From the NCBI GenBank assembly GCA_964291285.2, contig OZ219785.1, forward strand, positions 480,001 to 544,000: a stretch of DNA of 64,000 nucleotides. The letters are read 5' to 3'. The notes under the pieces were generated by a model that saw only the letters and a list, made by a program, of their open reading frames with translations, was not told the DNA's origin and searched no databases. Shown here one piece after another: positions 1,597-33,312 of this stretch. A program made the position numbers and the translations under genes. Position 1 is the stretch's first letter; each line of letters starts with the position of its first letter. This DNA is from Alphaproteobacteria bacterium. Lineage in GTDB: Bacteria > Pseudomonadota > Alphaproteobacteria > Bin95.

Positions 1597-1601
1597 GGAT
1601 G

Positions 1602-3610: not shown

Positions 3611-4395
3611 TGGAGTATCTGGCTGAGGAACAGTTTCGTGCGCTCCGACTGCGGATTGTTGAAGAAGGCCTCCGGCTCGTTCTGCTCCACGATCTGGCCC
3701 TCGTCCATGAAGATGATGCGGTGGGCGACCTGGCGCGCGAAGCCCATCTCGTGCGACACGACCAGCATGGTCATGCCGCTCTCCGCCAGATCGACCATCA
3801 CGTCCAGCACTTCCTTGATCATTTCCGGGTCGAGGGCCGAGGTCGGCTCGTCGAACAGCATGATGCGCGGCTGCATGCACAGCGAGCGCGCGATCGCGAC
3901 GCGCTGCTGCTGGCCGCCGGAGAGCTGACCCGGATATTTCAGCGCCTGGTCGCCGATCTTCACCCGCTCCAGGAAATAGCGCGCACGGTCCTCCGCTTCC
4001 TTCTTCGGCTCGCGCCGGACCCAGATCGGCGCCAGCGTGCAGTTCTCGATGACCGAGAGATGGGGGAAGAGGTTGAAATGCTGGAAGCACATGCCGACCT
4101 CGGACCGGATCCGGTCGATGTTCTTGATGTCGGAAGACAGCTCCGTGCCTTCGACGACGATCCGGCCGGCCTGGTGGTTCTCCAGCGCGTTGATGCAGCG
4201 GATAAGCGTGGACTTGCCGGACCCGGACGGCCCGCAAACGACGATCCGCTCGCCGCGATAGACGGTCAGGTTTATGTCCCGGAGGACGTGGAATTCCCCG
4301 AACCACTTGTTCATGCCGGCGATGTCGATCGCAACCTCGCCGGAGGCCGTCATGGCGCGGCGTTCTTCGTCCCGTTCGGTAGCGGCGGCGGTCAT
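3607..4395 (-). CDS. aapP: Amino acid ABC transporter ATP-binding protein
   Basis: [36 protein letters not shown]; last gene of AapJQMP/BztABCD order. Confidence 0.9.
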
Positions 4396-8260: not shown

Positions 8261-9058
8261 TCAGAGAGCGGCGAATTCCCGGAAGGCCTGCGCGCCCTCC
8301 GCGGCATGGCTGAGCGCAATGCCGTGACGGGCGCCGGGGAAGACCTGGAGCCGCGCATCGGGCAGCACCGTGAGCAGGTCCGCGGCTACGGTCATCGGCA
8401 GGAACGGGCTCGAATCGGGATGCAGCAGCAGCACCGGACAGGCGATTCGCCGGAATGTGTCGGACAGCTCCGCCCCCATCAGCAGGTCTGCGGCATCGAG
8501 CAGCGAGGCGGCGGCCGTCCGGCTCTGGACCTCGTGCATCCACTGCCGTTCGGCGGCCCCCACCTTGCCGTCTGCAAACCGGCGCGGAACCATCTCCTCC
8601 GACCAGCGCTCCATGCCGGCGGCCTCTACCGCCGCCCGCCAGGCGGCCACGTTTTGAATTGCAGGCCCGTAATGCCCGGTGGAGCAAGCGCAGACGCTCG
8701 CGATCCGCTCCGGTTCCCGGGCCGCGGTGAACAGGCAGGCAGTGCCGCCGAGCGACTCGCCGACGAGGTGGAAACGCCCGAAGCCCGCCGCGTCCGCGAC
8801 CGCCATGATGTCGTCCGCGAGCCCGTCGAAGGACCAGCGGTGCTCCGGCCCCGGCAGGGTCGAGCGGCCGAAGCCGCAAAGATCGAAGCGGGCGACGCGG
8901 AACCGGTCGATCAGGCCGGGCAGCCAGCCGGACCAGATGTGGCAATCGACCGCAACGCCGTGGCAGAACAGCACCGCTTCGCCGGGCGCGTTCCATGGCG
9001 GCACGAGGTCCACCGTTTCCATGTGGAGCGCGTAGCCGGGTCGCTGGAGCATGGTCAT
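8261..9058 (-). CDS. Alpha/beta-fold hydrolase
   Basis: FCHG oxyanion motif, DLCGFGRS, GESLGG nucleophile elbow, C-terminal GARH. Confidence 0.85.
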   Translation of the reverse strand: MTMLQRPGYALHMETVDLVPPWNAPGEAVLFCHGVAVDCHIWSGWLPGLIDRFRVARFDLCGFGRSTLPGPEHRWSFDGLADDIMAVADAAGFGRFHLVGESLGGTACLFTAAREPERIASVCACSTGHYGPAIQNVAAWRAAVEAAGMERWSEEMVPRRFADGKVGAAERQWMHEVQSRTAAASLLDAADLLMGAELSDTFRRIACPVLLLHPDSSPFLPMTVAADLLTVLPDARLQVFPGARHGIALSHAAEGAQAFREFAAL

Positions 9059-9064
9059 GGGCGC

Positions 9065-9102
9065 GCATGAAACGCACTTGCCCCCGGCTTGTCAAAACCG
9101 GC
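9065..9102 (+). repeat. 38-bp direct repeat, copy 1 (left of AAA+ ATPase gene)
   Basis: GCATGAAACGCACTTGCCCCCGGCTTGTCAAAACCGGC; 37/38 identical to 10350-10387. Confidence 0.9.
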
Positions 9103-9191
9103 CGCCATCGCCGCGCGGCCGCCCTGCTCAAGAGCAGGCAATCGCTTCATTTAACCTTGCATTTCTGGAATTGCACTCCATAATTGCAAGG

Positions 9192-10355
9192 ATGTTGCCG
9201 CGCCAGAAATCGCAAGTCGTTCGCGCCCGGCTGGACCGGTTCCCGGCTGTGGCGCTGCTCGGTCCGCGCCAGGCGGGCAAAACCACGCTGGCCGAACTTA
9301 TCGCCGAAGAGCGACCGAGCGTCTATCTCGATCTTGAGGACGCGGCCGACCGGGCGAAGCTGGGCGACGCCGCGCTTTACCTTGCCGGGCACGAAGACAA
9401 GCTGGTCGTCCTGGACGAAGTGCAGCGGGCGCCGGAACTGTTCCAGACGCTCCGGGGCCTCATCGACAGGGGCCGCCGCCGCGGCGTCCGGGCGGGCCGC
9501 TTCCTGCTTCTGGGTCCGGCGTCCATCGACCTGCTCAAACAGTCGGGAGAATCCCTTGCCGGCCGCATCTCCTATGTCGAACTGGGGCCGCTCGACCTTC
9601 TCGAAGTCGATGCCGGTGCGCGCGACAGGCTCTGGGTGCGGGGCGGGTTCCCGGACAGTTTCCTCGCCGGCAGCGGGAAAGACAGCGCCGTCTGGCGGGA
9701 GAATTTCATCCGCACCTACCTGGAGCGCGACATTCCGCAACTCGGGCCGCGCGTGCCGGCGGAAACCCTGCGCCGTTTCTGGACCATGCTGGCGCATATG
9801 CAGGGCGCCACGCTCAACGCGGCCCAGCTTGCGCGCGGGCTGGCAGTCGACGGCAAGACGGTCGCCGGCTATCTCGACCTGCTGGTCGACCTCCTGCTCG
9901 TGAGGCGGCTGCCGCCCTTCCGCGCCAATGTCGGCAAGCGCCTGGTGAAATCGCCGAAGGTCTATGTGCGCGACAGCGGCATCGTCCACACGCTGCTCGG
10001 CCTCGACGACCGCGAAGCGGTGCTGGGTCATCCGGTCGTCGGCGGAAGCTGGGAAGGGTTCGTGCTGGAAAACCTGCTCGGCGCGGTGCCCGAAAGGGCG
10101 AAAGCATGGTTCTACCGGACGGCTGCCGGTGCCGAAATCGACCTGGTGCTGGAGATGCCGGGCGGAAGGCTGTGGGCGGTGGAAATCAAGCGCAGCCTCG
10201 CGCCGAAGCTCGACAGGGGATTCCACCACGCGCGGGAAGACCTCGAACCGGAGCGCTCGTTCATCGTCTATTCCGGCGATGACCGTTACCCGAAGAGCGA
10301 AGGGATCGAGGTAATCGGCTTGCGTGAGCTGCTGGGGATGCTGGCGGCGGCATGA
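9192..10355 (+). CDS. AAA+ ATPase (AAA_14) with C-terminal DUF4143 / PD-(D/E)xK-like domain
   Basis: Walker A GPRQAGKTT, Walker B LDEVQ, ESLAGR, RGGFP, KSPKVYVRDSG, EIDLV...VEIK. Confidence 0.88.
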   Translation: MLPRQKSQVVRARLDRFPAVALLGPRQAGKTTLAELIAEERPSVYLDLEDAADRAKLGDAALYLAGHEDKLVVLDEVQRAPELFQTLRGLIDRGRRRGVRAGRFLLLGPASIDLLKQSGESLAGRISYVELGPLDLLEVDAGARDRLWVRGGFPDSFLAGSGKDSAVWRENFIRTYLERDIPQLGPRVPAETLRRFWTMLAHMQGATLNAAQLARGLAVDGKTVAGYLDLLVDLLLVRRLPPFRANVGKRLVKSPKVYVRDSGIVHTLLGLDDREAVLGHPVVGGSWEGFVLENLLGAVPERAKAWFYRTAAGAEIDLVLEMPGGRLWAVEIKRSLAPKLDRGFHHAREDLEPERSFIVYSGDDRYPKSEGIEVIGLRELLGMLAAA

Positions 10356-10387
10356 AACGCGCTTGCCCCCGGCTTGTCAAAACCGGC
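10350..10387 (+). repeat. 38-bp direct repeat, copy 2 (contains ATPase stop codon)
   Basis: GCATGAAACGCGCTTGCCCCCGGCTTGTCAAAACCGGC. Confidence 0.9.
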
Positions 10388-10402
10388 TACGATGGCCCCG
10401 TC

Positions 10403-11122
10403 ATGGCGATGCTCGAAGTCGAAATCTGGCGCGGGGAGGGCGGCGGCGGCGCCTGGCGGCGCTACGCCGTGCCGCACGAGGCCAACCAGACCGTGCTCGA
10501 CGTGGTGACGCATGTGCAGCGCTATCTGGACCCCTCACTCGCCTACCGTTTCGCCTGCCGGGTGGGCATGTGCGGCTCCTGCGCGATGACCGTCAACGGC
10601 CGCCCGCGCTGGACCTGCCGCACCCATGTCTCGCAGGCCGCGCGCAAGGGCCGGGTGCGGATCGGGCCGCTGCGCAACCTGCCGGTCATCAGGGACCTCG
10701 CGGTGGACATGGCGCCCTTCTTCGAGAAATGGCGCGACGCGGAGGCGCGGTTCGTGCCGCCGCCCGCGCCTGCCGAAGAAGCCGTCCGGCCGGACGAGCC
10801 GGGACGCATGGCCGCCGACGCCGGCATCGAGTGCATCAACTGCGCCGTCTGCTACGCCGCCTGCGACAGCGTGGCCTGGAACCCGGACTATCCGGGCCCG
10901 GCCGTGCTGAACCGCCTCTGGACGCTGGTGAACGACCGGCGCGACGGCGACCGCGACGGCCACCTGGACGCAGCCGGGGCGGGCTGCCACCTCTGCCGCA
11001 GCCACCAGGAATGCGCCGACGCCTGCCCGACCGGCCTCAACCCGACGGCCGCCATCGCCGGCCTGAAGCGCGAGGTCTTCCGCCGCGCGCTCGGCGGCGG
11101 CGCGCGGGGTCCGCGCCGATGA
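10403..11122 (+). CDS. Succinate dehydrogenase/fumarate reductase-family iron-sulfur subunit
   Basis: CRVGMCGSC...C (2Fe-2S), CINCAVCYAAC, CRSHQECADACP. Confidence 0.88.
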   Translation: MAMLEVEIWRGEGGGGAWRRYAVPHEANQTVLDVVTHVQRYLDPSLAYRFACRVGMCGSCAMTVNGRPRWTCRTHVSQAARKGRVRIGPLRNLPVIRDLAVDMAPFFEKWRDAEARFVPPPAPAEEAVRPDEPGRMAADAGIECINCAVCYAACDSVAWNPDYPGPAVLNRLWTLVNDRRDGDRDGHLDAAGAGCHLCRSHQECADACPTGLNPTAAIAGLKREVFRRALGGGARGPRR

Positions 11123-11445
11123 ACGAGGCCTGGCTGTTCGCGGCGCAGCGCCTCTCGGCAATGGTGATGGCGCCGCTGGTGCTGCTGCATCTGGGGGTCA
11201 TCCTCTATGCCGTCCGGGACGGGCTTTCCGCCGAGGAAATCCTGGCGCGCACCGAGGGCAGCCTGTTCTGGGGCGCGGTCTACGGGCTGTTCGTGCTGGC
11301 CGCCGCCGTGCATGCGCCCATCGGGCTGCGGGCCGTACTGAGGGAGTGGGGGCGCTGGCGGGGCGCAGGCCTGGACATCGCCATGACGATGTTCGGCCTC
11401 GTGCTGCTCGCGCTCGGCCTGCGCGCCGTGGCGGCCGTGCTGTGA
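11119..11445 (+). CDS. Sdh/Frd small membrane anchor subunit
   Basis: QRLSA...H, VHAPIGLR, three hydrophobic segments; ATGA overlap. Confidence 0.8.
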   Translation: MNEAWLFAAQRLSAMVMAPLVLLHLGVILYAVRDGLSAEEILARTEGSLFWGAVYGLFVLAAAVHAPIGLRAVLREWGRWRGAGLDIAMTMFGLVLLALGLRAVAAVL

Positions 11446-11768
11446 AGCGCGGACCCTGGTGGGCCTTCCTGCTGCACCGGCTTTCGGGCGTGGCGCTGGC
11501 GGTCTTCCTGCCGGTCCACTTCCTCGTGCTCGGCCTCGCGGTGGAGCGCGCGGCGCTTGATCGCGTGCTCGACTGGACGGACAATCCGTGGGTCAAGCTC
11601 GCCGAGGCGGGGCTGGTCGTGTTGCTGGCGCTCCACCTGACGGGGGGCCTGCGCGTGCTGCTGCTCGAGTTCGGGCGCTGGTCCGACCGCCAGCGGTCGC
11701 GGATTGCGGTGGCGGGCGGGCTGGCGCTGCTCGCGGGCTTCGGCTTCCTGGCGGCGGCCTTCGCATGA
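11442..11768 (+). CDS. Sdh/Frd cytochrome b-type membrane subunit
   Basis: LHRLSG, LHLTGGLR heme-ligand motifs; GTGA overlap. Confidence 0.8.
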   Translation: MKRGPWWAFLLHRLSGVALAVFLPVHFLVLGLAVERAALDRVLDWTDNPWVKLAEAGLVVLLALHLTGGLRVLLLEFGRWSDRQRSRIAVAGGLALLAGFGFLAAAFA

Positions 11769-13525
11769 TCGAGCGCCTCGACCGGGACATACTGATCCTC
11801 GGCTCCGGCGGGGCCGGGCTGTTCGCCGCGCTGCACGCCTACCGCGCCGACCCCGCGCTCGACATCGCCGTCGCAGCCAAGGGCCTGCTCGGCAAGAGCG
11901 GCTGCACCCGCATGGTGCAGGGCGGCTACAATGTGGCGCTCGCGCCCGGCGACAGCCTCGAACGCCATTTCATGGACACGATCGAAGGCGGGGCCTGGAT
12001 CAACCACCAGGAGCTGGCCTGGACGCTGATCGAGGGCGCGGTGGCGCGCATCCGCGAACTGGAAGACGAGATCGGCTGCTATTTCGACCGCAATCCCGAC
12101 GGCAGCATCCACCAGAAGGCGTTCGCCGGCCAGACCTTCGACCGCACCGTCCACAAGGGAGACCTCACCGGCATCGAGATCGTCAACCGGCTGATGGAGC
12201 AGGTCTGGGCGCGGGCGGTGACGCGGCTGGAGGAGCACCGGGCGGCGGCGCTGGTCCCCTCGCGCGACGGCTCCAGGCTCGCCGGCGTGCTGCTGATCGA
12301 CATTCGCACGGGCGTCCTGCGCTTCGTGCGGGCGAAGGCCGTGCTGCTCGCCACCGGCGGCGGCCCGACCATGTACCGCTACCACACCCCCTCCGGCGAC
12401 AAGACCTGCGACGGCATGGCGATGGCGCTGGAGGCGGGCCTGGCGCTGCGCGACATGGAGATGGTCCAGTTCCACCCGACGGGGCTCTATGCCGGCCCCG
12501 GCACGAGGATGACCGGCACCGTGCTGGAAGAGGGCTTGCGCGGCGCCGGCGGCCACCTGCTCGGCGGCGACGGCGCGCGCTTCATGGAGCGCTACGACGA
12601 CCGGCTGGAGCGCGCCACCCGCGACATCGTCAGCCGCGCCATGGCGAGCGAGATGCGTGCCGGGAACGTGACCGAAAACGGCGGGCTCTACATCTCGATG
12701 GCCCATCTCGGCCCCGCCTCGGTGGCCGAGCGCTTCAAGGGCATGGTCGAGCGCTGCCGGGACTGCGGCTTCGACCTCGCCGGCGGGCTGGTCGAGGTGG
12801 TGCCGACCGCGCATTACATGATGGGCGGCGTCGCCTTCGAGCCGGACACGACGACCGCCCTGCCCGGCCTCTACGCCGCCGGCGAGGACACGGGCGGCGT
12901 CCACGGCGCGAACCGGCTCGGCGGCAACGGCGTCGCCAACTCCACCGTCTATGGCGGCATTGCCGGCGACCGGATGGCGGCGGACGCGGCCCGCGAGCGC
13001 GCCTTCCCCGACCCGGACGAGGCGGTGCTGGAGGCCGCCGCCGCGCGCTGCCTGAGGGTCTTCGACCGGCCGCCCGGCGACCTCGCCGGCATCCGCGACC
13101 GGCTCGCGGACCTGATGTGGGACGAGGTCGGCATATTGCGCTCGGCCGGGAGCCTCGAGCGCGCCGAAGCCGGGCTCGCCGCGCTCGCGGCGGAGGTGGA
13201 GGCGGCCGGCGCGCCCGGCGGCCCTACCTTCAACCTCGCCTGGCACGACCGGCTGAACCTGGAAAGCCTCGTGACCGTCTCGCGCGCGATCACGGCGGCG
13301 GCCCGCGCCCGCGAGGACTCGCGCGGCGCACACTACCGCGAGGACTTCCCCGAGACCGGAGACCTCGCCGCCACGCGCTATACCGCCGTGCGTCTGGAGG
13401 ACGGCGAATTCGCCTCCGCTTCGGAACCCGTCGCCTTCACCCGCGTCAGGCCCGGCGAGTCGCTGCTGGACCAGGCCCCGGGACAGGCCGCAGGTCCACC
13501 GGCGGAGCATGATCGTTCAGGTTGA
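11765..13525 (+). CDS. Sdh/Frd/NadB-family flavoprotein
   Basis: GSGGAG, LATGG, QFHPT, RDIVSRA, AHYMMGG, HGANRLGGN, SRGAHYREDFP. Confidence 0.88.
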   Translation: MIERLDRDILILGSGGAGLFAALHAYRADPALDIAVAAKGLLGKSGCTRMVQGGYNVALAPGDSLERHFMDTIEGGAWINHQELAWTLIEGAVARIRELEDEIGCYFDRNPDGSIHQKAFAGQTFDRTVHKGDLTGIEIVNRLMEQVWARAVTRLEEHRAAALVPSRDGSRLAGVLLIDIRTGVLRFVRAKAVLLATGGGPTMYRYHTPSGDKTCDGMAMALEAGLALRDMEMVQFHPTGLYAGPGTRMTGTVLEEGLRGAGGHLLGGDGARFMERYDDRLERATRDIVSRAMASEMRAGNVTENGGLYISMAHLGPASVAERFKGMVERCRDCGFDLAGGLVEVVPTAHYMMGGVAFEPDTTTALPGLYAAGEDTGGVHGANRLGGNGVANSTVYGGIAGDRMAADAARERAFPDPDEAVLEAAAARCLRVFDRPPGDLAGIRDRLADLMWDEVGILRSAGSLERAEAGLAALAAEVEAAGAPGGPTFNLAWHDRLNLESLVTVSRAITAAARAREDSRGAHYREDFPETGDLAATRYTAVRLEDGEFASASEPVAFTRVRPGESLLDQAPGQAAGPPAEHDRSG

Positions 13526-13640
13526 AACAGCAGGGGCACGCCCCCGCATCTCCGCCCGGAAGCCCGGACTCGCACCCGGCCGGGACATGACATCGTACGG
13601 CCCGCCCCACGGTCGGTCCTGTCTTGCCGCCTTTCCGGTC

Positions 13641-13669
13641 TTGGGGAAACCGCCCGCCTCTGTCACAAT
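13641..13669 (+). promoter_or_regulatory. Possible sigma70 promoter for a leaderless smt transcript
   Basis: TTGGGG-17 nt-CACAAT, with only 6 nt between it and ATG 13676; no Shine-Dalgarno visible. Confidence 0.3.
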
Positions 13670-13675
13670 GTTCCG

Positions 13676-14707
13676 ATGACCCGTTCTTCCGCCAAGCGGT
13701 CGAGTTCCCGTTCTCTCGCCAATCTCGCTCCGGACGAAGTGAAATCCGTGGTGGACGGTTACACGGCGATTTACGACGCCGGAGAGCAGGGCAGAAGAGA
13801 GCAATACCGCTCGCTCGTAAATCACTATTACGACCTGGTTACCGACTTCTACGAATTCGGCTGGGGCCAGTCCTTTCACTTCGCGCCAAGGCGCCGGGGC
13901 GAGAGCTTCAAGGCTTCGATGGTCAGGCACCAGCATTATCTCGCCGACCGGCTGGTCCTGAAGCCGGGCATGCAGGTGCTCGATGTGGGATGCGGGGTCG
14001 GCGGACCGATGGGCAACCTGGCGCGCTATTCCGGCGCCGGCTTCGTCGGCATCAACAACAACACCTACCAGATCGAACGCGCGAAACATCACACCCGGGA
14101 TGTCGGGTCGCGGTGCCGCTTCATCCACGGCGACTACATGCGGATTCCCGAAGGCGAGGATTGCTACGACGCCGCGTTCGCCATCGAGTCCATGCCCCAC
14201 GCGCCGGACAAGGCAGGCGCGTTCCGCGAAATCCTGCGCGTCCTGCGCCCCGGCGCCTGTTTCGCGGGTTACGAGTGGTGCCTCACCGATGATTTCGACC
14301 CCGAAAACGCGGAGCACCAGCGGATCAAGAACGAGATCATGGTTGGGGATGCGCTGCCGGAAATCGCGTCCATGCCGGAGATTTGCGACGCATTGCGCAC
14401 CGCCGGGTTCGAGCTGCTGGAAGCCAGGGACCGCGCCCCCGAGTCGGATCCGCAAACGCCCTGGTACCGCGCCCTGCAGGGCCGCGACTTCACGCTTTCG
14501 AGCATCCCGCGCACGCCTTTCGGCCGCGCCCTCACCAATCAGACGCTGCGGGTCGGAGAGAGGCTGCGGCTGTTTCCTGAGGGCTCCCGCGCGGTCAGCA
14601 CGCTGCTGAACGCGGCGGCCGACGCGCTGATCGAAGGCGGCAGGTCCGGCATCTTCACGCCGATGTTCTTTTTCCTGGCCCGCAAGCCTCCGCGCTCCGG
14701 CGACTGA
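13676..14707 (+). CDS. smt: Sterol 24-C-methyltransferase (SMT/ERG6-like)
   Basis: Region I YYDLVTDFYEFGWGQSFHFA, region II VLDVGCGVGGP, GINNNTYQ, region III FAIESMPHAP, region IV YEWCLTD, C-terminal GIFTPMFFFLARKP. Confidence 0.93.
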   Translation: MTRSSAKRSSSRSLANLAPDEVKSVVDGYTAIYDAGEQGRREQYRSLVNHYYDLVTDFYEFGWGQSFHFAPRRRGESFKASMVRHQHYLADRLVLKPGMQVLDVGCGVGGPMGNLARYSGAGFVGINNNTYQIERAKHHTRDVGSRCRFIHGDYMRIPEGEDCYDAAFAIESMPHAPDKAGAFREILRVLRPGACFAGYEWCLTDDFDPENAEHQRIKNEIMVGDALPEIASMPEICDALRTAGFELLEARDRAPESDPQTPWYRALQGRDFTLSSIPRTPFGRALTNQTLRVGERLRLFPEGSRAVSTLLNAAADALIEGGRSGIFTPMFFFLARKPPRSGD

Positions 14708-14742
14708 ACGCCGCGCGTCCTCGGCCGCAGGGCCGCCGGCGC

Positions 14743-17700
14743 TCAGGACAGGGAACGGGCGGAAGCCGCTTCCGGCAGGGGCGGCACCGACGCGCCGGCG
14801 CAGGCAGCAGGGGCGGCGAGGTTCAACCGGTCCCGGCGGCGGCGCTCATAGAGGCTGAGCGCATGCAGCGGGAAATACTGCCGGTAGAGCACGTAATCCA
14901 GGAGCGCCGTCCGGAAGAACACGCCGGCCATGTTCTGTTTGGGCCACCCCCCTTCGGCGTCCTGCGTGTCGAGCAGGAACCGGGCGCCGCGCGACACCGC
15001 GGCCCAGTTCGAGTCGCCCGCCTCGAGGAGCGCGATCAGCGCCCACGCGGTCTGGATGACCTGGCTCTCGCCGTGCGGGACATAGCGGCCGGTCAGGCAG
15101 CCGCTGTGGTGCTCGCCCCATCCTCCGTCTTCCCGCTGGCGTTCCAGCAGCCAGCGGCAGGCCGAGCGCAGCGCCGGGTCGCCGGGACGGGACCCGGCGG
15201 CAAGAAGGCCCCTGATGCCGAACAGGGTGCCGTAAATGAACTGGACGCCCCATACGCCGCGCCAGGAGCCGTCCATCGCCTGCGTCCGGCGCAGCCAGGA
15301 TTCGGCCCGGGAGACGGCGCCCGCCGCGCCGTCCGCGATCTCCGGAAACCGCTCCCTGCACGCGGCGAGCGCGGCGAGGCAGGATGCCGTGCATTCCACA
15401 AAGGAATGCTCCGTCATCGAGTCGCCGAACATCTCGGCCGGATTCAGCCACTCCAGGCCGAAAGCCGAACGCCGCGCCTCATAGCTGCCGAAGCCGCCGT
15501 CGCGGTTCTGGCCGCGCAGCATGAAGGCGACCGCATCGCCGAGCGCCGCCCTGTCGGCGTCGCCGCCCCGTGCCGCGATGAGTCCGAGCACCGCCTCCGC
15601 CGTGCAATCGCTCACCGGCCAGCCATGCCACCCGCCCGCAAAGCACCAGCCGCCCCTGGGGTCGGTTCGATAGGCTTCGCGAAACCCTTCGAAGCTCGTA
15701 TCGATCTGCTCGCCCAGCAGGAAACCGGCGCCGCGCGCGAGCGCGTCCCCGACCCCGGCGGGCTCGGGCAGCGCCGCCAGCGCCTGCAGCGCGAACCCCG
15801 TGTCCCAGGAGGCGCTTCTCGCTCCGGTGACGCGCGCGCCCTCTTCCTCGTCTTCCCAGATCCAGCCGTCCAGCTGCGCGAGCGCCTGCCGGCAGTCGGC
15901 GTCGTCCGGATCGTGCAGCCACAGCGCAAGGATGTTGAGAAGGCCGCTGACCGGGGAGATGCTTGTGTGGCTGGTGGTCTGCAGCTCCCACCTGATGCGC
16001 CCGACAATCGCATCCGTGCATCGCGCGCGGAGGCGCCTGCCGTGAACCCGCTCGAACAGCCGCGCCAGCCCGTATCCGGCCCTGAGCCAGAGGCCCGGCC
16101 TCGCATACAGGTCGGCATCCCGCAGGCGACCCCGGGCAGCGGAGAAGTCAACGCCGGCAAAGCCCTGCGGGAACAGCTCCTCCCGCAGCGATTCGATCAG
16201 CGGCGTGACGGGCGCCTGGAACCGGCGCGCGTAAATCGCCGCCATCGCCATGTAGATGAGCCGCGTGTGGCAGTACCAGTTCGAGGGGTGCAGCGGTATC
16301 CGGCGCGGCAGGCTCCACAGTTCCGGCAGAACCGCGTTCACCCCGCGCCAGTCATAGAGGTTGAGGAGCGCCAGCCAGAATTTTCCCCAGCTCGGAATGC
16401 CGAGAACCCCCTCGGCCTGCAGGAACCGCCGGGCCGGCTCGACCAGGGGATCCTCCCGCCCGACGCCCAGCAGCCTCGCCGCGACATAGACGAGTGCGGT
16501 GACGAACAGGTGAGGCGGCGAGTGCTCGTGCAGGCCCCATGCGCCGCCCTCGAGCCGGGTCCGCTCGAAGGAGCGCAGCACACGCCGGCGGCGGCCCGGT
16601 TCCAGCGGCCGTCCGATTAGATGGTGCAGCAGCGCATATTGCGCGGTGAGCATGGGGCACCAGACCATCTCGCCTTCCCACGCGCCGTCCTCTCTCTGGA
16701 GGCTCAACAGGCGCGCGGCCGCGCTCTTCAATGCCGGACCGGCATCGGGCGATTCGACCTCCTTCGAGCGGGCGGGCCTGGAGGCCTCGCCTCCGGAAGG
16801 CATGGAGTACAGGAACGCGCGGGCCAGGCTGTCCCGGGTTTGCCTGCTTTCTTCCCGGCCCTCGCGACTCGCCTGCCGGAGCTGCCGGACACCGCGCTGG
16901 AGCCACCAGAGGCGAACGGCGAGCGCATTGAAGATGGTCCGGGTCCGATGCGAAGCGAACCGGCGGAAGGAGAACGGAATCTCCCGGGTCAGCGCCCGGG
17001 CCACCGTTCCGCAGAATGCGAGGGTCATGCCGGTCGCGGACCGGTCCTCGCAGGCGAGTATCCGCGTGGTCCGGTCCCGGTACGCGGAATTCGCCCGCCA
17101 GCCCCGGTAGATCGCGGATCTGAGGACCACCGCTTCCACGCGATGATCGGCGAAGACCTCGTAGAGCCCCATTGCGAGGAACTCGGGAATGCGGGTCGCC
17201 CGGAAGCGTTCGGCGGCGAAGTCCCGAAAGCGCTCGTTCTCGGCGAGCGTCAGCGCATCGCCGAACCCGAGTGTCATGCCGACCGCCGTCATGGGATGAT
17301 AGTGCCCGGCGGCGTCGCCGATCAGCACCCGGCGCGGGCTCAGCTGATTGGCCGCCGCATGGAATTGGCCCGCCCGCAACGCCTCGACGAAGGCCGGCCC
17401 GAGAGCCCCCGGCAGCAGCCCGGCGCAGGATTCCGACAGGAAGGCAATCCGGTCCCGGGGCGTCCAGCGGTCCAGCGGAAGATCGACGATGACCCGGACG
17501 CAGCCGTCCGCCAGGCCGTATATGAGGATCGGACCCGGCCCGCCCAGCACCACATGCCCGTAGCCTTCGAAGGGCAGGTCCGCCCCGCCTATGGTGACCC
17601 CCAGCATCCGCGAGCAGAGCATCGGGTCCGTGGAGAGACCCAGCGACTGGCGCACGATCGAGGCCCGGCCGTCGGCGCCGACGACGCGCGCGGCGGTTAT

Positions 17701-18144
17701 GGAGCGCTCATCGCCGCCAACGGAAAAGGCGACCCGCCCGTCATCGACCGCATTGACCCGCGCGTGGGAAATGAAATCGACGCCGGCTTCGTCCGCGATG
17801 GCGTCGCGGAGGCTCGAGACGAGCAGCGCATGGTCGCATGCCAGGCCCCGGGACCCGTCCGGATAGGGAAGCAGGATCGGCTCCGAGCCGTCCTCCGGAA
17901 ACACCACGAATCCCTTGCCCGGCGTGGCTCCGGGCAGCCGGTCCGTGTCTATCCCGATGTCGCGCAATATCCTGACGGCCGGCGGATGCAGCCACTCGCC
18001 GGCCAGGCGCGCCGATGCCCTGGGATTGGCTTCGAGCAGGGCCACCCGGGCGCCCTTGCGCGCATGGGCGAGCGCGCAGAGGCTCCCCACCGGGCCCGCG
18101 CCGACAATGGCTGCGTCGTAAGGCCGCCCGGCGGCACCGCTCAT
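14743..18144 (-). CDS. Squalene epoxidase-oxidosqualene cyclase fusion protein (1133 aa)
   Basis: N-terminal FAD monooxygenase: GAGPVG, LAGEWLHP, GADG, IGDAAGHYHPMTAVGMT. C-terminal OSC: WYCHTR, HGWPVSDCTAE, QW repeats, NPAEMFGD, VECTAS, GVWGVQF. One open frame; ATG overlaps the CYP51 stop (ATGA). Confidence 0.92.
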   Translation of the reverse strand: MSGAAGRPYDAAIVGAGPVGSLCALAHARKGARVALLEANPRASARLAGEWLHPPAVRILRDIGIDTDRLPGATPGKGFVVFPEDGSEPILLPYPDGSRGLACDHALLVSSLRDAIADEAGVDFISHARVNAVDDGRVAFSVGGDERSITAARVVGADGRASIVRQSLGLSTDPMLCSRMLGVTIGGADLPFEGYGHVVLGGPGPILIYGLADGCVRVIVDLPLDRWTPRDRIAFLSESCAGLLPGALGPAFVEALRAGQFHAAANQLSPRRVLIGDAAGHYHPMTAVGMTLGFGDALTLAENERFRDFAAERFRATRIPEFLAMGLYEVFADHRVEAVVLRSAIYRGWRANSAYRDRTTRILACEDRSATGMTLAFCGTVARALTREIPFSFRRFASHRTRTIFNALAVRLWWLQRGVRQLRQASREGREESRQTRDSLARAFLYSMPSGGEASRPARSKEVESPDAGPALKSAAARLLSLQREDGAWEGEMVWCPMLTAQYALLHHLIGRPLEPGRRRRVLRSFERTRLEGGAWGLHEHSPPHLFVTALVYVAARLLGVGREDPLVEPARRFLQAEGVLGIPSWGKFWLALLNLYDWRGVNAVLPELWSLPRRIPLHPSNWYCHTRLIYMAMAAIYARRFQAPVTPLIESLREELFPQGFAGVDFSAARGRLRDADLYARPGLWLRAGYGLARLFERVHGRRLRARCTDAIVGRIRWELQTTSHTSISPVSGLLNILALWLHDPDDADCRQALAQLDGWIWEDEEEGARVTGARSASWDTGFALQALAALPEPAGVGDALARGAGFLLGEQIDTSFEGFREAYRTDPRGGWCFAGGWHGWPVSDCTAEAVLGLIAARGGDADRAALGDAVAFMLRGQNRDGGFGSYEARRSAFGLEWLNPAEMFGDSMTEHSFVECTASCLAALAACRERFPEIADGAAGAVSRAESWLRRTQAMDGSWRGVWGVQFIYGTLFGIRGLLAAGSRPGDPALRSACRWLLERQREDGGWGEHHSGCLTGRYVPHGESQVIQTAWALIALLEAGDSNWAAVSRGARFLLDTQDAEGGWPKQNMAGVFFRTALLDYVLYRQYFPLHALSLYERRRRDRLNLAAPAACAGASVPPLPEAASARSLS

Positions 18145-19550
18145 CGGAAAACGCTCGGCTCCACGCGGCGGCGGTAGCGGACCCGGCACGGCGTCTCGGG
18201 CCCCGTCACCCAGCTGCCGTAATTCGGGCGTGGAAACTTCGGCCCGGCGACGAAGTCGAAGCGGTCGAGCAGAACCGTCCAGATCGCCTTGAGCTGCATA
18301 TAGGCGAAATTCTTGCCCATGCACGCATGTTTGCCGCCGCCGAAGCCGATCAGGGCGTAATGATGTTGCCTGTCCTCGCTGGCGGGCGGCGCGAAACGGT
18401 CCGGGAAGAACCGCTCCGGATCGGCGAAAACCCGGGGCAGGCGGTGGGAAACCGCCGGCGACACCATGGCCATGGTGCCGGCGGGCACGACACTGCCCCC
18501 GTAACGGAGCGGTTCGAGCACCTTCCGGATCAGCAATATCAGCGGCGGGTGCAATCGCTCGCATTCGCGCACGGCGTTTTCCATCGCCGGCTGGCGCTGA
18601 AGGCTGTCGAGGCTCATCGACCCCGCTTCGCGGTAAACCTCCCGCGCCTCCTCCCTCAACCGTGCCAGGTAGGAGGGCGTCCTGAAGAGCTCCAGGCCGG
18701 TCCAGGTCGCGAGCACCGCGCTGGTGTGCTGGCCGGCGAACAGCACGGTCAGCAGGATCCCCGTGATCTCGTCGTTGCTGAGCGCACGGCCGTTCTTGTA
18801 GCGCGCATTCATGAGCGTTTGCATGAAGTCGTCGGGACCGGCCCCGGCATTGCGGCGCGCCGCCATGATTCCACCGAAGAGCTCCGCCACCTTCCGGCGG
18901 GCCCGGTCGCGGCTTCGATGCGCCGGGGTGGGAAGTCTGGGAAGGAAGAATCCGAGCGTGTTGATGCCCTTCTGCAGGTCGTGGTAGGCCTCGGCGAAGC
19001 CGGTATCCACCCGGTCGCGAACCTCCTGCCCGATCAGGCAGCGGCTGGCGATCCTGACGGTGAGCTCGTTCATCGCGTGCGGCAGGTCGATTTCGCCCTC
19101 CCCGCCGAGGGCGTCGGCGAAAGCGCTCGCCTCCTCGAACATGATGAGGGCGAATTTCCGCATGGCGGCTTCGCGGAGCGCGGGAAACAGGAACCCCAGC
19201 TGCTCCGCCATGATTTCCGGCGAGGTGTCATAGGCCACGCCGCGCCCGAAGACGGGCACGGTGAAGCGATAGACCGCCTTGGCGTTCAACTGGGTCTCGG
19301 GCGCCCTGAAATAGAAGTCGTGGGCTTCCGGCCCGGTGAAGAGAACGAAGTCGCGAAGTCCCAGCCTGAAGCGGAAAAGGTCGCCATGCCGGCGCCAGCC
19401 GCGGCTCAGCATGGCGACCGGGTCCCGCTGAAATTCCCTGAGATGGCCGATCAGCGGCCAGCTGCCCGCCAGTTCCGGAACGGGCGCCTCCGACGGCGGC
19501 GGGAGGTCCGCGGACTGCAGCGTCGCCATGCTGTGAGACCGGTTCGCCAT
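18141..19550 (-). CDS. cyp51: Sterol 14-alpha-demethylase (cytochrome P450 CYP51)
   Basis: SRS1 YRFTVPVFGRGVAYD, I-helix FAGQHTS, ECER (ExxR), heme motif FGGGKHACMG. Confidence 0.92.
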   Translation of the reverse strand: MANRSHSMATLQSADLPPPSEAPVPELAGSWPLIGHLREFQRDPVAMLSRGWRRHGDLFRFRLGLRDFVLFTGPEAHDFYFRAPETQLNAKAVYRFTVPVFGRGVAYDTSPEIMAEQLGFLFPALREAAMRKFALIMFEEASAFADALGGEGEIDLPHAMNELTVRIASRCLIGQEVRDRVDTGFAEAYHDLQKGINTLGFFLPRLPTPAHRSRDRARRKVAELFGGIMAARRNAGAGPDDFMQTLMNARYKNGRALSNDEITGILLTVLFAGQHTSAVLATWTGLELFRTPSYLARLREEAREVYREAGSMSLDSLQRQPAMENAVRECERLHPPLILLIRKVLEPLRYGGSVVPAGTMAMVSPAVSHRLPRVFADPERFFPDRFAPPASEDRQHHYALIGFGGGKHACMGKNFAYMQLKAIWTVLLDRFDFVAGPKFPRPNYGSWVTGPETPCRVRYRRRVEPSVFR

Positions 19551-19558
19551 CCCCGTCC

Positions 19559-20659
19559 TCAATGGATGAACGGCAGCATCGAGAAGCGCGCCCGCTGCGT
19601 GTAGCGCTCCCACAGCTCGCCATATTTGGCGCGGCAGCGGCGCTCATCGCGTCTCGAGCGGTGCCACAGGAGACCCGCCAGCCACGCGGGCAGCAGGTAG
19701 GGCCCCCAGGATGCGAGCCCGGTGGTCAGCGCGAAAGCGAGATAGATACAGATCTCGCCGGTATAGTTGAGGTGCCGTCCGATACCCCAGAATCCGGAGA
19801 CCAGGAGGCGCCCGTCCAGGGTCCGGGCGGGTTGCCCCCAGATCCTGATATCGGGGTCGCGCTTGAAGCGGTGCTTCTGCTGGTTGGCGCCGCGGAAGAG
19901 CCAGAAGCCGAAGGCGAACAACAGGACGATGGCCGCCGCGGCGGCCGGAGACAACGGGTCCGGCGCGTGAACCAGCCACCAGCCGGGAAGGCAGTAGAAG
20001 AACGGCACCAGCACGTAGTCGCCCCAGACCAGCATCCATCCGAAGCGCTCGCTGATGATGTCCCAAGTGTGGATCATGCCGTGCTCGAACTGGAAGTAGT
20101 TGAGCACGTAGAGGAAGGTGAACGCCTGATAGAGCGCCATCGCCAGGGTAAGCTCGCCATAGGTTTCCCACTGCACGACGGCGAAGGAGGCGTTGACGAG
20201 CGCCAGACCGATGAGCGAGGGGCGGTAGCTGAAGAGCTTCAGGTCGATCCCGAACCAGACCGGGCCGGCATCGACGCCGCCGAAATAGCCCCGCCAGAAT
20301 CCCGGCGCCGCGCCGGGCGCCCGCATCCCCCGCCAATACAGCCAGCCGGCAAGGGCGAAGGCGAAGGCGTTCGCCGCCACGAACAGGGCGGCGAAGTGGG
20401 TGTAGAGCACCGAAAGGGAGAACCAGCCGAGGAACTGGGCGAGGCCCGCCGCGAGCGCGGCGATCAGGAAGAGCGCGAGGCCGTTCAGCTTGTAGATGCG
20501 CTCATTGCCCTCGGCGTCCGGCCCCGCGATGCGGCGGCCGGGAAGGAGCATCGAACCCAGGAACAGCAACGCGACGAACGCCAGCGCCATTGCCGCCGCT
20601 TCGAGCAGCGCTCCGCCCGACAGCGCGGACGACAGGAGGAACGCTTCAGGCGGGGACAC
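19559..20659 (-). CDS. ERG4/ERG24-family sterol reductase (probably Delta14-reductase)
   Basis: Polytopic membrane protein; TWDIISERFGWMLVWGD, ANQQKHRFK, LLVSGFWGIGRHLNYTGE, RDERRCRAKYG. Confidence 0.88.
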   Translation of the reverse strand: MSPPEAFLLSSALSGGALLEAAAMALAFVALLFLGSMLLPGRRIAGPDAEGNERIYKLNGLALFLIAALAAGLAQFLGWFSLSVLYTHFAALFVAANAFAFALAGWLYWRGMRAPGAAPGFWRGYFGGVDAGPVWFGIDLKLFSYRPSLIGLALVNASFAVVQWETYGELTLAMALYQAFTFLYVLNYFQFEHGMIHTWDIISERFGWMLVWGDYVLVPFFYCLPGWWLVHAPDPLSPAAAAAIVLLFAFGFWLFRGANQQKHRFKRDPDIRIWGQPARTLDGRLLVSGFWGIGRHLNYTGEICIYLAFALTTGLASWGPYLLPAWLAGLLWHRSRRDERRCRAKYGELWERYTQRARFSMLPFIH

Positions 20660-21731
20660 CGCCGTCCCCGGACCCGCGGGCCAGAGTTTCCCGCCACTTG
20701 CGCACCGTCACTTCCTGAAAGGCCCTGACCACGGGATTGAACTCGACGGGGCGGGCGTCCCAGTGTTTCTCGTAACCCTCTTGCTCCGCTTCGAGCGCGA
20801 ACCGGTCCTGGTCGAGCAGGGGGGCGATCAGCATACGGTTGGAGATCTTCATGACCGCGGTCATGGCGAAACGCGGAATGCGCACCGGCAGGAACGGAAT
20901 TTTCAGAGACTTGAAATAGAACAGGAAGAACACCCGGGTGGTGCGCTCGTCCATGGGCAGCACGAACAGCCAGTGCTTGATTGCGTCATCGGTGTTCGAC
21001 CACTGGTAGGGATATTCGTAGCAGAGCTCCATGCGGTTGGTGTTGAGCCGCTCGTGGTCCACGAACAGTCCTGAAATGCGCCCGCGCCCGACCCGGGTAT
21101 CGTAAGCGAGATGCACATTGTCCCCGACGGTTTCGCAGGAGGCGAGCGTGGCTCCGTCGAAGGGCCGGTAGCGGCGGTGCAGATGCGCGTGGGTGAAGTC
21201 GCTCACATTGTCGATCACCATCGAGTGGTGCGCCGACCACGTGAAGCGCAGCGGCACGCAGGTCCAGCGCCCGGGCCCCTCCAGTTCGGGAATCTCCGGG
21301 ATCCGGTGCTGTTCCGCCTGCTCCGGGTCGCCGGGGAAGAGCCACACCAGCCCGTAGCGGACCTTTACCGGGTAGGTCTTGAGCGCAAGCCGCGGAAAGC
21401 TCCGCCCGTTGCCGTCATAGGGAACCCCGGCGGGCCGTTCCCTGCCGCCATATTCCCAGCCGTGATAGGCGCACACCAGCCGGCATCCCTCCACATGGCC
21501 GATGGAGAGCTTGAGCTGGCGGTGCGCGCAGCGGTTCTCGATCGCCTGGAACGAGCCGTCCGTTCCCCGGAACAACGCAATCGAATGTTTCCAGAAGACG
21601 ACCTCGACCACCGTCCCCGGCTTGACCCGGCGCACTTCCTCGACCGCATACCAGTAATTCGGGTCCATGCCCGCGGCGCGCGCCTGCTGGCGGAGCGTGC
21701 CGGCCTCCTCGAAGCAGGGCGGCGGCCTCAT
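20646..21731 (-). CDS. Rieske non-heme iron oxygenase, SdmA-like sterol C-4 demethylase component
   Basis: Rieske CAH...CAYHGW, mononuclear Fe motif DNVSDFTHAHLH; SdmA identity inferred from position in the sterol operon next to an SDR. Confidence 0.75.
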   Translation of the reverse strand: MRPPPCFEEAGTLRQQARAAGMDPNYWYAVEEVRRVKPGTVVEVVFWKHSIALFRGTDGSFQAIENRCAHRQLKLSIGHVEGCRLVCAYHGWEYGGRERPAGVPYDGNGRSFPRLALKTYPVKVRYGLVWLFPGDPEQAEQHRIPEIPELEGPGRWTCVPLRFTWSAHHSMVIDNVSDFTHAHLHRRYRPFDGATLASCETVGDNVHLAYDTRVGRGRISGLFVDHERLNTNRMELCYEYPYQWSNTDDAIKHWLFVLPMDERTTRVFFLFYFKSLKIPFLPVRIPRFAMTAVMKISNRMLIAPLLDQDRFALEAEQEGYEKHWDARPVEFNPVVRAFQEVTVRKWRETLARGSGDGGVPA

Positions 21732-22888
21732 GTCGCGCTCCCGCCGGGCACCGCATGCAAGCCCTGGCGCGGCGCGGGAGGTTCCGCCTCTCTCGCCGCG
21801 CGTTGCTCCGGGGCGTCGGCGCGCGGCGGTTTCGCGGACGGATTTACGATCGCGTTGCGGCCGTGGTGGAACGCGTAGGCTTCGTGAACCGCGTCGCGGA
21901 TGCCGGTCGGCCGGTAGCCGAGCTCGCGCTGCGCCTTGCCGGTGTCGGCATGGCGGCGCTTTTTCAGCAGGCGTATGGCGCCGGGGGTGAAACGCTGGGG
22001 AAAGTCCGGGTGGAAGCGGCTCAGGTAGGAGCTCGCCACTTCCGAAAAGGCGAGCATCAGGGGCGCCGGAATCCGCCGGCGCGGCCTCGGGACGCCCGAG
22101 ACCTCCTCATACAGGCCCACGATCTCCGAGATGGTCTTGTACTCGCTGCTGAAGATGTATTTCTCGCCCGAGCGGCCATGATGCATGCACAGCAGGTGCC
22201 CCTCGACAATGTCGCGCGCCGCGACGAACTCGAACCCGCCATCGATATAGGCATGAAGCTTGCCGTTGGTGTAGTCGCACAGGGTCCTTCCCAGCCGCGA
22301 GGGCAGATAGTCGGCGCCTCCCACCACCGCGCAACAGGTCGCGACCACGACATCCTGCCCCGTGGCCGCCGCGCGCCAGCATTCCTGCTCAACCAGCGAC
22401 TTGCTGCGCTCGTAGGGCATCGTGCGCTCCATGGGATAGAACGGCATCGTCTCGTCGCTGGGCGCGGACGGATCGTCCGGATCGTAACCGACCGCGCTGA
22501 AGGAGCCGGTTACGACCACGCGCCCGGCCTCGGCCTCCCGCGCCGCCTGCAGCACGTTGCGGGTGCCGCGAACATTGCACTCGAACAGCTCCCGGCGATG
22601 GGCGCGGTTGCCCCCGACGGTCGAGATCTTGGCCGCGACATGATAGACGCCCTGACATCCGGCGAGCGCCTGCCTGGTGGCATTCAGGTCCCGGATGTCG
22701 CCGAACACGCGCTCCACATCGAGGCCTTCCAGCGCCTCATTATTGTCCTCATGCCTCAGCAACACCCGGACCCGCACGCCGTCGTCGAGCAGCCGGCGCA
22801 CGAGATTGGCGCCGACATGTCCGGCCGAACCGGTAACGAAAACGGGCGGCATCGACGAACCCGCCGGCATGCTCGACCGGGACGTCAT
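21728..22888 (-). CDS. Extended SDR / 3-beta-HSD-like protein, SdmB-like decarboxylase-reductase
   Basis: VTGSAGHVG, NVRGTRNV, TGS, YERSK catalytic motif; ATGA overlap with the Rieske gene; start may be 22870 or later. Confidence 0.75.
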   Translation of the reverse strand: MTSRSSMPAGSSMPPVFVTGSAGHVGANLVRRLLDDGVRVRVLLRHEDNNEALEGLDVERVFGDIRDLNATRQALAGCQGVYHVAAKISTVGGNRAHRRELFECNVRGTRNVLQAAREAEAGRVVVTGSFSAVGYDPDDPSAPSDETMPFYPMERTMPYERSKSLVEQECWRAAATGQDVVVATCCAVVGGADYLPSRLGRTLCDYTNGKLHAYIDGGFEFVAARDIVEGHLLCMHHGRSGEKYIFSSEYKTISEIVGLYEEVSGVPRPRRRIPAPLMLAFSEVASSYLSRFHPDFPQRFTPGAIRLLKKRRHADTGKAQRELGYRPTGIRDAVHEAYAFHHGRNAIVNPSAKPPRADAPEQRAAREAEPPAPRQGLHAVPGGSAT

Positions 22889-23119
22889 CGCAGCCGCGTT
22901 CCGCTAAAGGGAACGGTGAGCCAGTCTAGTTCCGCGAGACGGGGACGGAGTCTTGCCGACAATGCCGCTCACTCACCGGCCGGTATCGCAACGGCAAGCA
23001 TATCGATTCGAATCCGCGCCTGTTTGCACTCTGAAATATCGCGGGTTCTTCATGCCTATACCTCACATCTTCGAGAAGACCACGGTATCGGCCGACCAAT
23101 ATGAAACCAGACGCCACAA

Positions 23120-23147
23120 AGCGTATCGAAATTTACCTGATTGTCAA
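23120..23147 (-). promoter_or_regulatory. Candidate sigma70 promoter of the sterol operon
   Basis: Minus strand TTGACA-16 nt-TACGCT in an AT-richer patch about 230 nt upstream of 22888. Confidence 0.45.
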
Positions 23148-23318
23148 ATGCAACATGCCTATAACGCTCACCATTCGCCCGGAAAGCGAACGCCCGACCC
23201 GGGAAACCCCCTTGCGTCATCCCGGCCTCAGTCCGCCCCGGCGCCCGGAGCGGCCCGGGCGCCATGCCGAGCACATGAAAAAGCCCTCGAAAACTTCAAT
23301 GTTTCCAATGGCTTTCAG

Positions 23319-23363
23319 TAGTTTCGGGGGCAGGATTTGAACCTGCGACCTTCAGGTTATGAG
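23319..23363 (-). mobile_element. 3' half of tRNA-fMet(CAT), att-like remnant (not an intact tRNA)
   Basis: Reverse complement CTCATAACCTGAAGGTCGCAGGTTCAAATCCTGCCCCCGAAACTA = anticodon loop, T arm and degenerate acceptor 3' strand; 5' half absent. Confidence 0.85.
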
Positions 23364-33114: not shown

Positions 33115-33312
33115 GCTCTCGCTCCCATGCCGTGCCGGCAGCCCTGACATGACCGTGACATCGAGTGGTGCAACCGTCTGCCTTTCGGGAAAGAATGCAC
33201 CCCGAGGGGGAGGAACGGAACCCCCCAGGGCGAATTAATTGTCTGCCTTTGGGCCATGTTGAGGTGGGGTCCGGGGTGGCTATTTTTTTCTTGATATGGC
33301 AGTGTGCCGGTC

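Follow-up and report, generated by a model that had tools for sequence, protein, structure and literature searches.

The window analysed here is a stretch of 64,000 nucleotides (nt) from an alphaproteobacterial contig (OZ219785.1, positions 480,001 to 544,000), with a G+C content of about 69% and ordinary chromosomal genes, among them rpoD, dnaG, carAB and the gene for pyruvate kinase. At 13676–14707 on its plus strand lies a gene for a putative sterol C-24 methyltransferase (SMT), a protein of 343 amino acids (P0001) that combines a class I methyltransferase domain with Sterol_MT_C. As a preliminary description of this DNA had noted, the gene faces an operon: its stop codon (14705–14707) lies tail to tail, across a spacer of 35 nt (14708–14742), with a minus-strand open reading frame (ORF) that ends at 14743 and encodes a fused squalene epoxidase-oxidosqualene cyclase (P0272, 14743–18144; 1133 residues in a single open frame). 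Behind it on the minus strand follow the genes for a CYP51 sterol 14-demethylase (18141–19613; p450 domain, E = 8.6e-57, and synteny) and an ERG24-type sterol C14-reductase (19559–20659; ERG4_ERG24, E = 5.6e-69), the start codons of both being uncertain, for SdmA, a Rieske C-4 methylsterol monooxygenase (20646–21731; NF052579, E = 1.7e-120, with 402 bits against a cut-off of 600; Rieske and VanA_C domains), and for SdmB, the NAD-dependent partner in C-4 demethylation (21728–22888; NF052578, E = 1.7e-87, below its cut-off; Epimerase/3Beta_HSD). The ATG of the epoxidase-cyclase overlaps the stop codon of CYP51 (ATGA, 18141–18144). Short overlaps also join SdmB to SdmA (4 nt) and SdmA to ERG24 (14 nt) when the longest ORFs are taken; the overlaps suggest translational coupling within the minus-strand operon, whereas the SMT gene would have a promoter of its own.

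By family and by conserved residues we assign 13676–14707 to a genuine bacterial SMT. The protein scores 76.9 bits against Pfam PF08498 (Sterol_MT_C; cut-off 21.7) over residues 279–338, and 61.6 bits against PF08241 (Methyltransf_11). A scan of NCBIfam returned just generic methyltransferases far below their cut-offs, which is not counted against SMT identity since that collection holds no SMT model. Each of the 25 residues that functional SMTs are reported to conserve is present, in a piecewise constant register; yeast numbering was mapped through this motif register (offsets 22, 24, 23 and 30) and not by alignment to yeast Erg6. The preliminary description had called regions I, II and IV canonical, and as read in the translation this holds for their conserved cores. 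Region I (YEFGWGQSFHF, residues 59–69; 13850–13882, plus strand like the other motifs) matches GWGxxFHF through G62, W63, G64, F67, H68 and F69, and the SAM (S-adenosylmethionine)-binding region II (LDVGCGVGGP, residues 102–111; 13979–14008) matches DxGxGxxGP through D103, G105, G107, G110 and P111. Outside the cores there are departures: region I has Tyr at yeast position 81 but Phe in place of Tyr83, and region IV (RPGACFAGYEW, residues 191–201; 14246–14278) has Ala-Cys in place of what we take to be Gly218-Thr219 of the yeast enzyme. In an alignment of 101 sequences, no variation occurs in 8 columns and almost none in 27 more.

Compared with yeast Erg6 and plant SMT1 and SMT2, the window SMT shares regions I–IV and Sterol_MT_C, and presumably the chemistry. 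It differs in an N-terminus shorter by about 22 residues, as judged by register, in region III, and in being encoded by a bacterial, clustered and apparently leaderless gene; published identity between clade members and yeast ERG6 is about 39–42% (Brown et al. 2023, PMC10070321). Three homologues of 322 amino acids (P0016, P0042, P0089) begin at the equivalent of codon 22. An alternative GTG start at this codon was judged the less probable one, because most orthologues of 343–344 residues retain the first 21 codons in frame and with similar sequence.

Region III (residues 169–177; 14180–14206) reads AIESMPHAP, as the preliminary description had stated and the translation confirms. Here E171 corresponds to yeast E195 and is invariant in the 101-sequence alignment, F168, just before the motif, corresponds to yeast Y192, and S172-M173-P174 (hereafter S-M-P) replace A-T-C, so that the protein departs from the usual IEATCHAP at three of eight positions (Ala to Ser, Thr to Met, Cys to Pro). 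This departure is widely shared. Counting the query, the 121 closest cluster representatives include 101 with ESMPHAP, and S-M-P occurs in 68 of 79 full-length genomic orthologues as against none of 82 other SMT rows, the latter comprising 13 paralogues found in the related loci and 69 representatives of clusters at 50% identity. The orthologues without S-M-P carry ATP (five), ATV (two) or, once each, STA, AHA, SLP and SIV; among the 82 other rows, A-T-C stands in 32 and S-T-C in 16. At the DNA level the Ser (TCC/TCG) and Pro (CCC/CCG/CCT) codons of the motif vary synonymously among orthologues, and the ratio of non-synonymous to synonymous substitution (dN/dS), taken over the whole gene against 19 orthologues, is 0.11–0.29. 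Because of this distribution, the synonymous codon variation and the low dN/dS, we read S-M-P as an inherited and selected signature of one SMT clade and not as a product of chance. A full-text literature search for the string ESMPHAP found no paper, and one for mutagenesis of region III found nothing beyond the preprint of Brown and Welander (2025).

Two phylogenies agree with this placement. In a FastTree of 162 rows, the window SMT falls in the starred set of 80 rows with a local support of 96. In an IQ-TREE of 67 rows, it belongs to a clade of 35 rows that stands on a branch of length 0.38 with a Shimodaira-Hasegawa-like approximate likelihood ratio test (SH-aLRT) value of 100, and whose members include loci matched to bacterial SMTs with published assays. 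Both trees omit representatives shorter than 300 or longer than 430 residues or lacking GWGxxFHF, and the smaller tree took in just 32 of the 79 orthologues. Together with the Sterol_MT_C score and the 25 conserved residues, this clade bears out the earlier view that the protein is an SMT and not a tocopherol or other methyltransferase.

An odd region III might instead mark loss of function in a decaying or inactive copy. Inactive relatives do exist: of 10 sponge-symbiont and 14 environmental SMTs assayed, 8 and 12, respectively, alkylated desmosterol at C-24, so that two in each set showed no activity (Brown et al. 2023). Yet the frame of the window gene is intact, the dN/dS values are those of a gene under purifying selection, none of the 25 conserved residues is missing, and Pro174 is a substitution rather than an insertion, itself conserved with synonymous codon variation. 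Moreover, a copy bearing S-M-P was active in the same published assays. We give this explanation hardly any credence.

An AlphaFold2 model built from the 101-sequence alignment adopts the class I methyltransferase fold with a mean predicted local distance difference test score (pLDDT) of 91.7 and a predicted template modelling score (pTM) of 0.90. Region III forms the end of the strand at 164–170 and the loop that comes next. Among solved structures, the nearest folds are those of TleD, AtmM, SpnF, MitM, RebM and geranyl diphosphate (GPP) C-methyltransferase, of which TleD and the GPP enzyme are olefin C-methyltransferases. Sequence and fold searches of the PDB with the window SMT found no solved true SMT; entry 6f5z, titled '24-sterol C-methyltransferase', matches just the methyltransferase core (E = 4.5e-8).

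A word-indexed protein search with the window SMT returned 120 cluster representatives at 76–95% identity, and a genome scan returned 80 loci at 64–96%, all from records of metagenome-assembled genomes (MAGs). Their titles name Alphaproteobacteria, Defluviicoccus, Rhodospirillales, Nitrospirales, Nitrospinaceae, several gammaproteobacterial groups, Binatia, Gemmatimonadota, Rhodothermales, Acidobacteriota and Thermodesulfobacteriota, and the closest loci come from alphaproteobacterial MAGs. When these 80 loci were searched by tblastn with the window proteins, the sterol gene set proved to travel as a whole. The exact layout of the window recurs in 41 loci; in 12 the SMT gene follows the cyclase on the same strand, in 5 it comes first, ahead of SdmB, and in at least 4 it follows SdmA, the remaining arrangements being partial or singletons. 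Nine loci have no other gene of the set within the DNA examined around the SMT. The fusion of epoxidase and cyclase is nearly constant: 64 of 66 related loci have the two in a single open frame.

Shared DNA defines the extent of this set. Homology with relatives spans 13610–22915, starting at about 13610–13640 and stopping at about 22915: locus L001 matches window positions 13610–23363 at 94% identity, L002 matches 13624–22915 at 89%, and the Nitrospirota locus L019 matches 13659–22850 at 78%. The borders are sharp, and the flanks are not shared even with the 94%-identical L001. We take the unit to be a transferable island of six genes and about 9.3 kb, whose left end is formed by the SMT gene and the 40–60 nt upstream of it. 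Because Nitrospirota MAGs retain 77–78% identity to the window over 9.2 kb, with a synonymous divergence (dS) of 0.67–0.74 between the window SMT and the Nitrospirales copies, the comparison points to a fairly recent transfer of the island between phyla. No mobility genes were found at the island borders. A protein-mode search of a plasmid collection gave just two distant methyltransferases (33–35% identity) and no carrier of the island.

Further SMT paralogues lie beside the island in many relatives, mostly 44–52% identical and in one case 71% (L010 at 1162–4336, L061 at 8735–12162, and L019, L020, L024, L030, L065, L077 and L078). Three SMT genes stand in a row in L010 and in L061, and the window has a single copy. 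One paralogue group combines a deviant region I (MVYGWGESLHF) with a canonical region III (IESTCHAP). Near the island, at window positions 9051–10355 on the plus strand, is a gene for an AAA_14/DUF4143 ATPase, a 57%-identical homologue of which directly follows SMT in two loci from Gemmatimonadota that have the other island genes displaced (L079, 11094–12248; L080, 11139–12293).

This kind of system is already in print, as are the convergent SMT gene and the transfer of the island. The same six genes make up the msb locus of a gammaproteobacterial symbiont of the sponge Melophlus sarasinorum, in which the fused, bifunctional epoxidase/cyclase is known as msbE (Mohanty et al. 2020, PMC7074536). 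'Clusters of steroid genes' were reported in 115 of 537 Ircinia MAGs from 10 phyla, in which the gene next to the cyclase end, SMT or FDFT1, lies on the opposite strand, as SMT does in the window; horizontal transfer was argued there, and the msb locus was the best BLASTn match of these clusters (Kelly et al. 2022, PMC9531527). What differs is that the passages of these two papers that bear on the locus contain no analysis of SMT motifs or promoters.

The msb locus also raises the question whether the enzyme acts on sterols at C-24 in vivo at all. For msbF, the SMT gene of that locus, a part in tailoring a triterpenoid natural product, the methoxylated sarasinosides, was suggested (Mohanty et al. 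2020), and msb is the best BLASTn match of the Ircinia clusters. The published suggestion is an untested proposal, however, whereas clade members alkylate C-24 in vitro (Brown et al. 2023). The window SMT keeps every one of the 25 SMT-specific residues, including the cation-stabilising aromatic residues of region I, and no glycosyltransferase genes were found within the window. A tailoring role in place of C-24 methylation is thus very improbable in our judgement.

Two of the related loci could be matched to SMTs assayed by Brown et al. (2023). The gene order of L030 (SMT, sdmB, sdmA, ERG24, ERG11, SMO/OSC) is that given for 'Nitrospira sp., coral reef 1 of 2', genes 2682229274–279, and 'fused SMO/OSC' homologues are mentioned in the methods of that paper; L060_a matches a second assayed enzyme. 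L030_a and L060_a belong to the clade of the window SMT, to which they are 78% and 69% identical, and they share its neighbour genes and its ESMPHAP motif (ALESMPHAP in L030_a, AIESMPHAP in L060_a), but carry Asn where the window SMT has Asp at the position equivalent to yeast 249. The Nitrospira coral reef SMT converted desmosterol to (epi)codisterol (legend of supplementary figure 3 of Brown et al. 2023). In the same study, relatives of the window SMT accepted desmosterol and 24-methylenecholesterol in lysates, and three assayed bacterial SMTs made 24-isopropyl sterols. The window SMT is therefore a new member of a known and experimentally sampled clade.

How many methyl groups such an enzyme adds has been traced to residues 249, 81 and 83 (Brown & Welander 2025 preprint). 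According to that source, Gly249 is required, though by itself not enough, for C30 (24-isopropyl) sterols, and Phe at 81 or 83 raises the C30 yield while being neither necessary nor sufficient. The change G249D abolished C30 products in both enzymes tested and C29 products in one; the SMT of an Aplysina symbiont so mutated kept C28 and C29 and lost C30. In the window SMT the corresponding positions are occupied by Y59 (81), F61 (83), F168 (192) and D225 (249), the last encoded by GAT at 14348–14350 and placed by motif register. The Gly required at 249 is thus absent, and Phe is found at 83 but not at 81. Because of Asp at 249, Tyr at 81 and Phe at 83, we predict that the enzyme makes C28 and perhaps C29 sterols, but not C30 sterols. 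Two points weigh against leaning heavily on this prediction: the rule for position 249 rests on two mutated enzymes, and these differ in the effect of G249D on C29, which makes the C29 part the less certain. Among the 79 orthologues, position 249 holds Asp in 43, Asn in 33, Thr in 2 and Gly in a single one.

That single Gly belongs to L024_a, the likely equivalent of the propylating SMT of an Aplysina aerophoba symbiont (JGIcombinedJ30088_10000835 1 of 2, Ap_sym_SMT). Like the published locus, whose order is SMT, SMO/OSC, ERG11, ERG24, sdmA, sdmB as in the window, L024 has this layout; L024_a has 343 residues, Gly at residue 225 in agreement with the preprint's 'G249 (G225)', Phe at both 81 and 83, and 79% identity to the window SMT. 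The window enzyme differs from it in D225 instead of Gly, Y59 instead of Phe and ESMPHAP instead of ESTAHAP, and because of D225 it lacks the residue that C30 production requires.

These comparisons bear directly on the idea, put forward in the preliminary description, that the variant region III alters the product spectrum. In its full form this idea would have S-M-P reshape the sterol pocket and yield unusual products, up to 24-isopropyl sterols or new olefin isomers, perhaps from host or dietary sterols. Region III does have an assigned role in sterol binding, the yeast change Y192F allows a second methylation and the window SMT has Phe there (F168), the clade includes the likely propylating L024_a, (epi)codisterol from an S-M-P enzyme is a delta-25(27) product, and relatives accept desmosterol and 24-methylenecholesterol. 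However, S-M-P occurs in the great majority of orthologues whatever their residue at 249 and so does not on its own decide how large the product is; it is missing from L024_a, which is likely to be the propylating copy; Asp at 249, found in the window SMT, abolished C30 in both enzymes tested; E195 is the sole region III residue among the 25 conserved in functional SMTs (Brown & Welander 2025 preprint); and a full pathway of de novo synthesis accompanies the SMT, in the window layout at 41 of the 80 loci and in different layouts at most others. We regard a reshaped pocket as unlikely. The earlier proposal does not stand, for S-M-P is the norm of the clade, occurs in the matched L030_a and L060_a, and product size is set elsewhere. 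The suggested activity on host or dietary sterols is a separate matter: the substrates that relatives accept in lysates leave room for it, and the company of a complete pathway of de novo synthesis speaks the other way.

A bolder combination of these elements can be imagined, although as a whole we would call it a long shot. S-M-P, with Pro in place of Cys198, might steer the clade towards proton loss from C-27 and hence towards codisterol, clerosterol and other delta-25(27) products, perhaps pre-adapting the pocket for repeated methylation; position 249 alone would then toggle between methyl or ethyl and isopropyl products, with the window enzyme as a natural 'G249D' that stops early; and the side-chain step, given its conserved leaderless promoter, could be controlled independently of the core pathway in any host that receives the island.

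The last of these elements rests on the DNA upstream of the gene, where a putative promoter stands just before the start codon. A -35-like hexamer, TTGGGG (13641–13646, plus strand), is followed after a 17-nt spacer by a candidate extended -10 element (13661–13669, plus strand), consisting of TG at 13661–13662, one further base and the hexamer CACAAT at 13664–13669, which ends 6 nt before the ATG at 13676. In sigma-70 promoters a leaderless mRNA requires the -10 hexamer at -12 to -7 from the start codon. We anchored 80 upstream sequences, from the window and 79 loci, on their start codons and scored as -10-like any hexamer with A at its second and T at its sixth position and at least four of six matches. 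Such a hexamer stands exactly at -12 to -7 in 38 of the 80 sequences, as against no more than 5 at any other offset, except 17 at -4 that stem from AATAAT runs. TG precedes the -10 position in 36 of the 80. Within the group of 38, ATG is the start codon in 34, a -35-like element lies at a distance of 16–18 nt in 31 (0–4 at shifted control positions) and TG is present in 24. The information content of the aligned sequences peaks at A -11, A -8 and T -7 and is near zero beyond -45. Shine-Dalgarno (SD)-like tetramers precede 11 of the 80 SMT genes and are lacking from the window copy, whereas several other window genes do carry them. The motif is kept also where the SMT gene follows the cyclase on the same strand, as in L039, L048 and L052.

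These features fit a leaderless SMT mRNA made from its own promoter. Several observations weigh against that interpretation. A promoter consensus scan of 13300–15000 gave no hit at its threshold, so that the window copy taken singly lacks significance, and this copy matches the consensus at just 7 of 12 positions. In 42 of the 80 sequences no -10-like hexamer occupies the exact offset, many being near misses and some having no motif. Since the sequences are homologous, common descent accounts for some of the upstream conservation. In several copies from Gammaproteobacteria, GGAG stands 9–10 nt before the ATG, a possible ribosome-binding site within the same stretch. Finally, a flavoprotein gene on the same strand ends 150 nt upstream of the SMT with no terminator found, which makes read-through possible.

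Other scans of this region were negative. Over 13300–15000, two terminator-like sites were detected, both inside the gene and no more than shuffled sequences give, with none in the spacer. The 35-nt convergent spacer shows no notable hairpin (z-score 0.59) and thus no convincing terminator separating the convergent genes, and an Rfam scan of 13300–14900 at E <= 1 revealed no riboswitch or other RNA family. Co-transcription of SMT with the minus-strand operon is excluded by their convergent orientation, so that the SMT gene is probably transcribed separately. On this point the preliminary description is supported, both by orientation and by the position-fixed motif in 38 of 80 sequences. Its further suggestion of a leaderless promoter probably stands as well: the conserved hexamer at a fixed offset and the missing SD sequence favour it, and the failure of the scan to find a promoter in the window speaks against it.

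Taken together, we consider it likely that the product of the window gene is a functional sterol C-24 methyltransferase that uses SAM and belongs to a clade carried on a six-gene island by bacteria of many phyla that live with sponges and corals. It would be an enzyme of ordinary C28 or C28/C29 methylation, with which S-M-P is compatible, and would be expressed from a leaderless promoter of its own. The fused epoxidase-cyclase would convert squalene to a sterol of the lanosterol or cycloartenol type, CYP51 and the C14-reductase would remove the 14-methyl group, and SdmA and SdmB would carry out C-4 demethylation. SMT would then methylate the delta-24 double bond with SAM as the donor, and proton loss from the resulting cation would give 24-methylene or delta-25(27) 24-methyl sterols. 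The gene itself would be read from an extended -10, sigma-70-type promoter inside the island, with transcription starting on the A of the ATG. The sequences themselves show the family, the conserved residues, the clade signature, purifying selection, the synteny and the upstream motif at its fixed place; activity, product range and start site are what we infer for the window gene.

Directly upstream of SMT, at 10324–13525 on the plus strand, lie a gene for an sdhC-like membrane subunit and one for a flavoprotein of the succinate dehydrogenase/fumarate reductase type, with no iron-sulfur subunit gene between them and SMT. The flavoprotein remains below every NCBIfam cut-off (best TfrA, 481 bits against 718), and in none of the 80 related loci do these two genes adjoin SMT. 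Farther away, at 33304–35100 on the plus strand, is an ORF for an ISAs1-family transposase, the N-terminal part of which also matches Pfam DruA (Druantia; E = 2e-19).

In conclusion, the window gene is one more intact member of the clade shown to be active by Brown et al., seen here in a long chromosomal context, and it leaves the current picture unchanged. Our additions are modest: a sequence tag for the clade, the rarity of Gly249 and a conserved, position-fixed promoter motif. S-M-P could serve as a quick tag for the island-linked SMT clade, and the conserved promoter of leaderless type is a feature of island expression after transfer that lends itself to testing. Whether 24-alkylated steranes from old rocks may count as markers of eukaryotes or sponges is a question on which bacterial SMTs have a bearing. 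With Gly249 in just 1 of 79 genome-derived orthologues, the genomic capacity for the 24-isopropyl biomarker looks rare within this clade.

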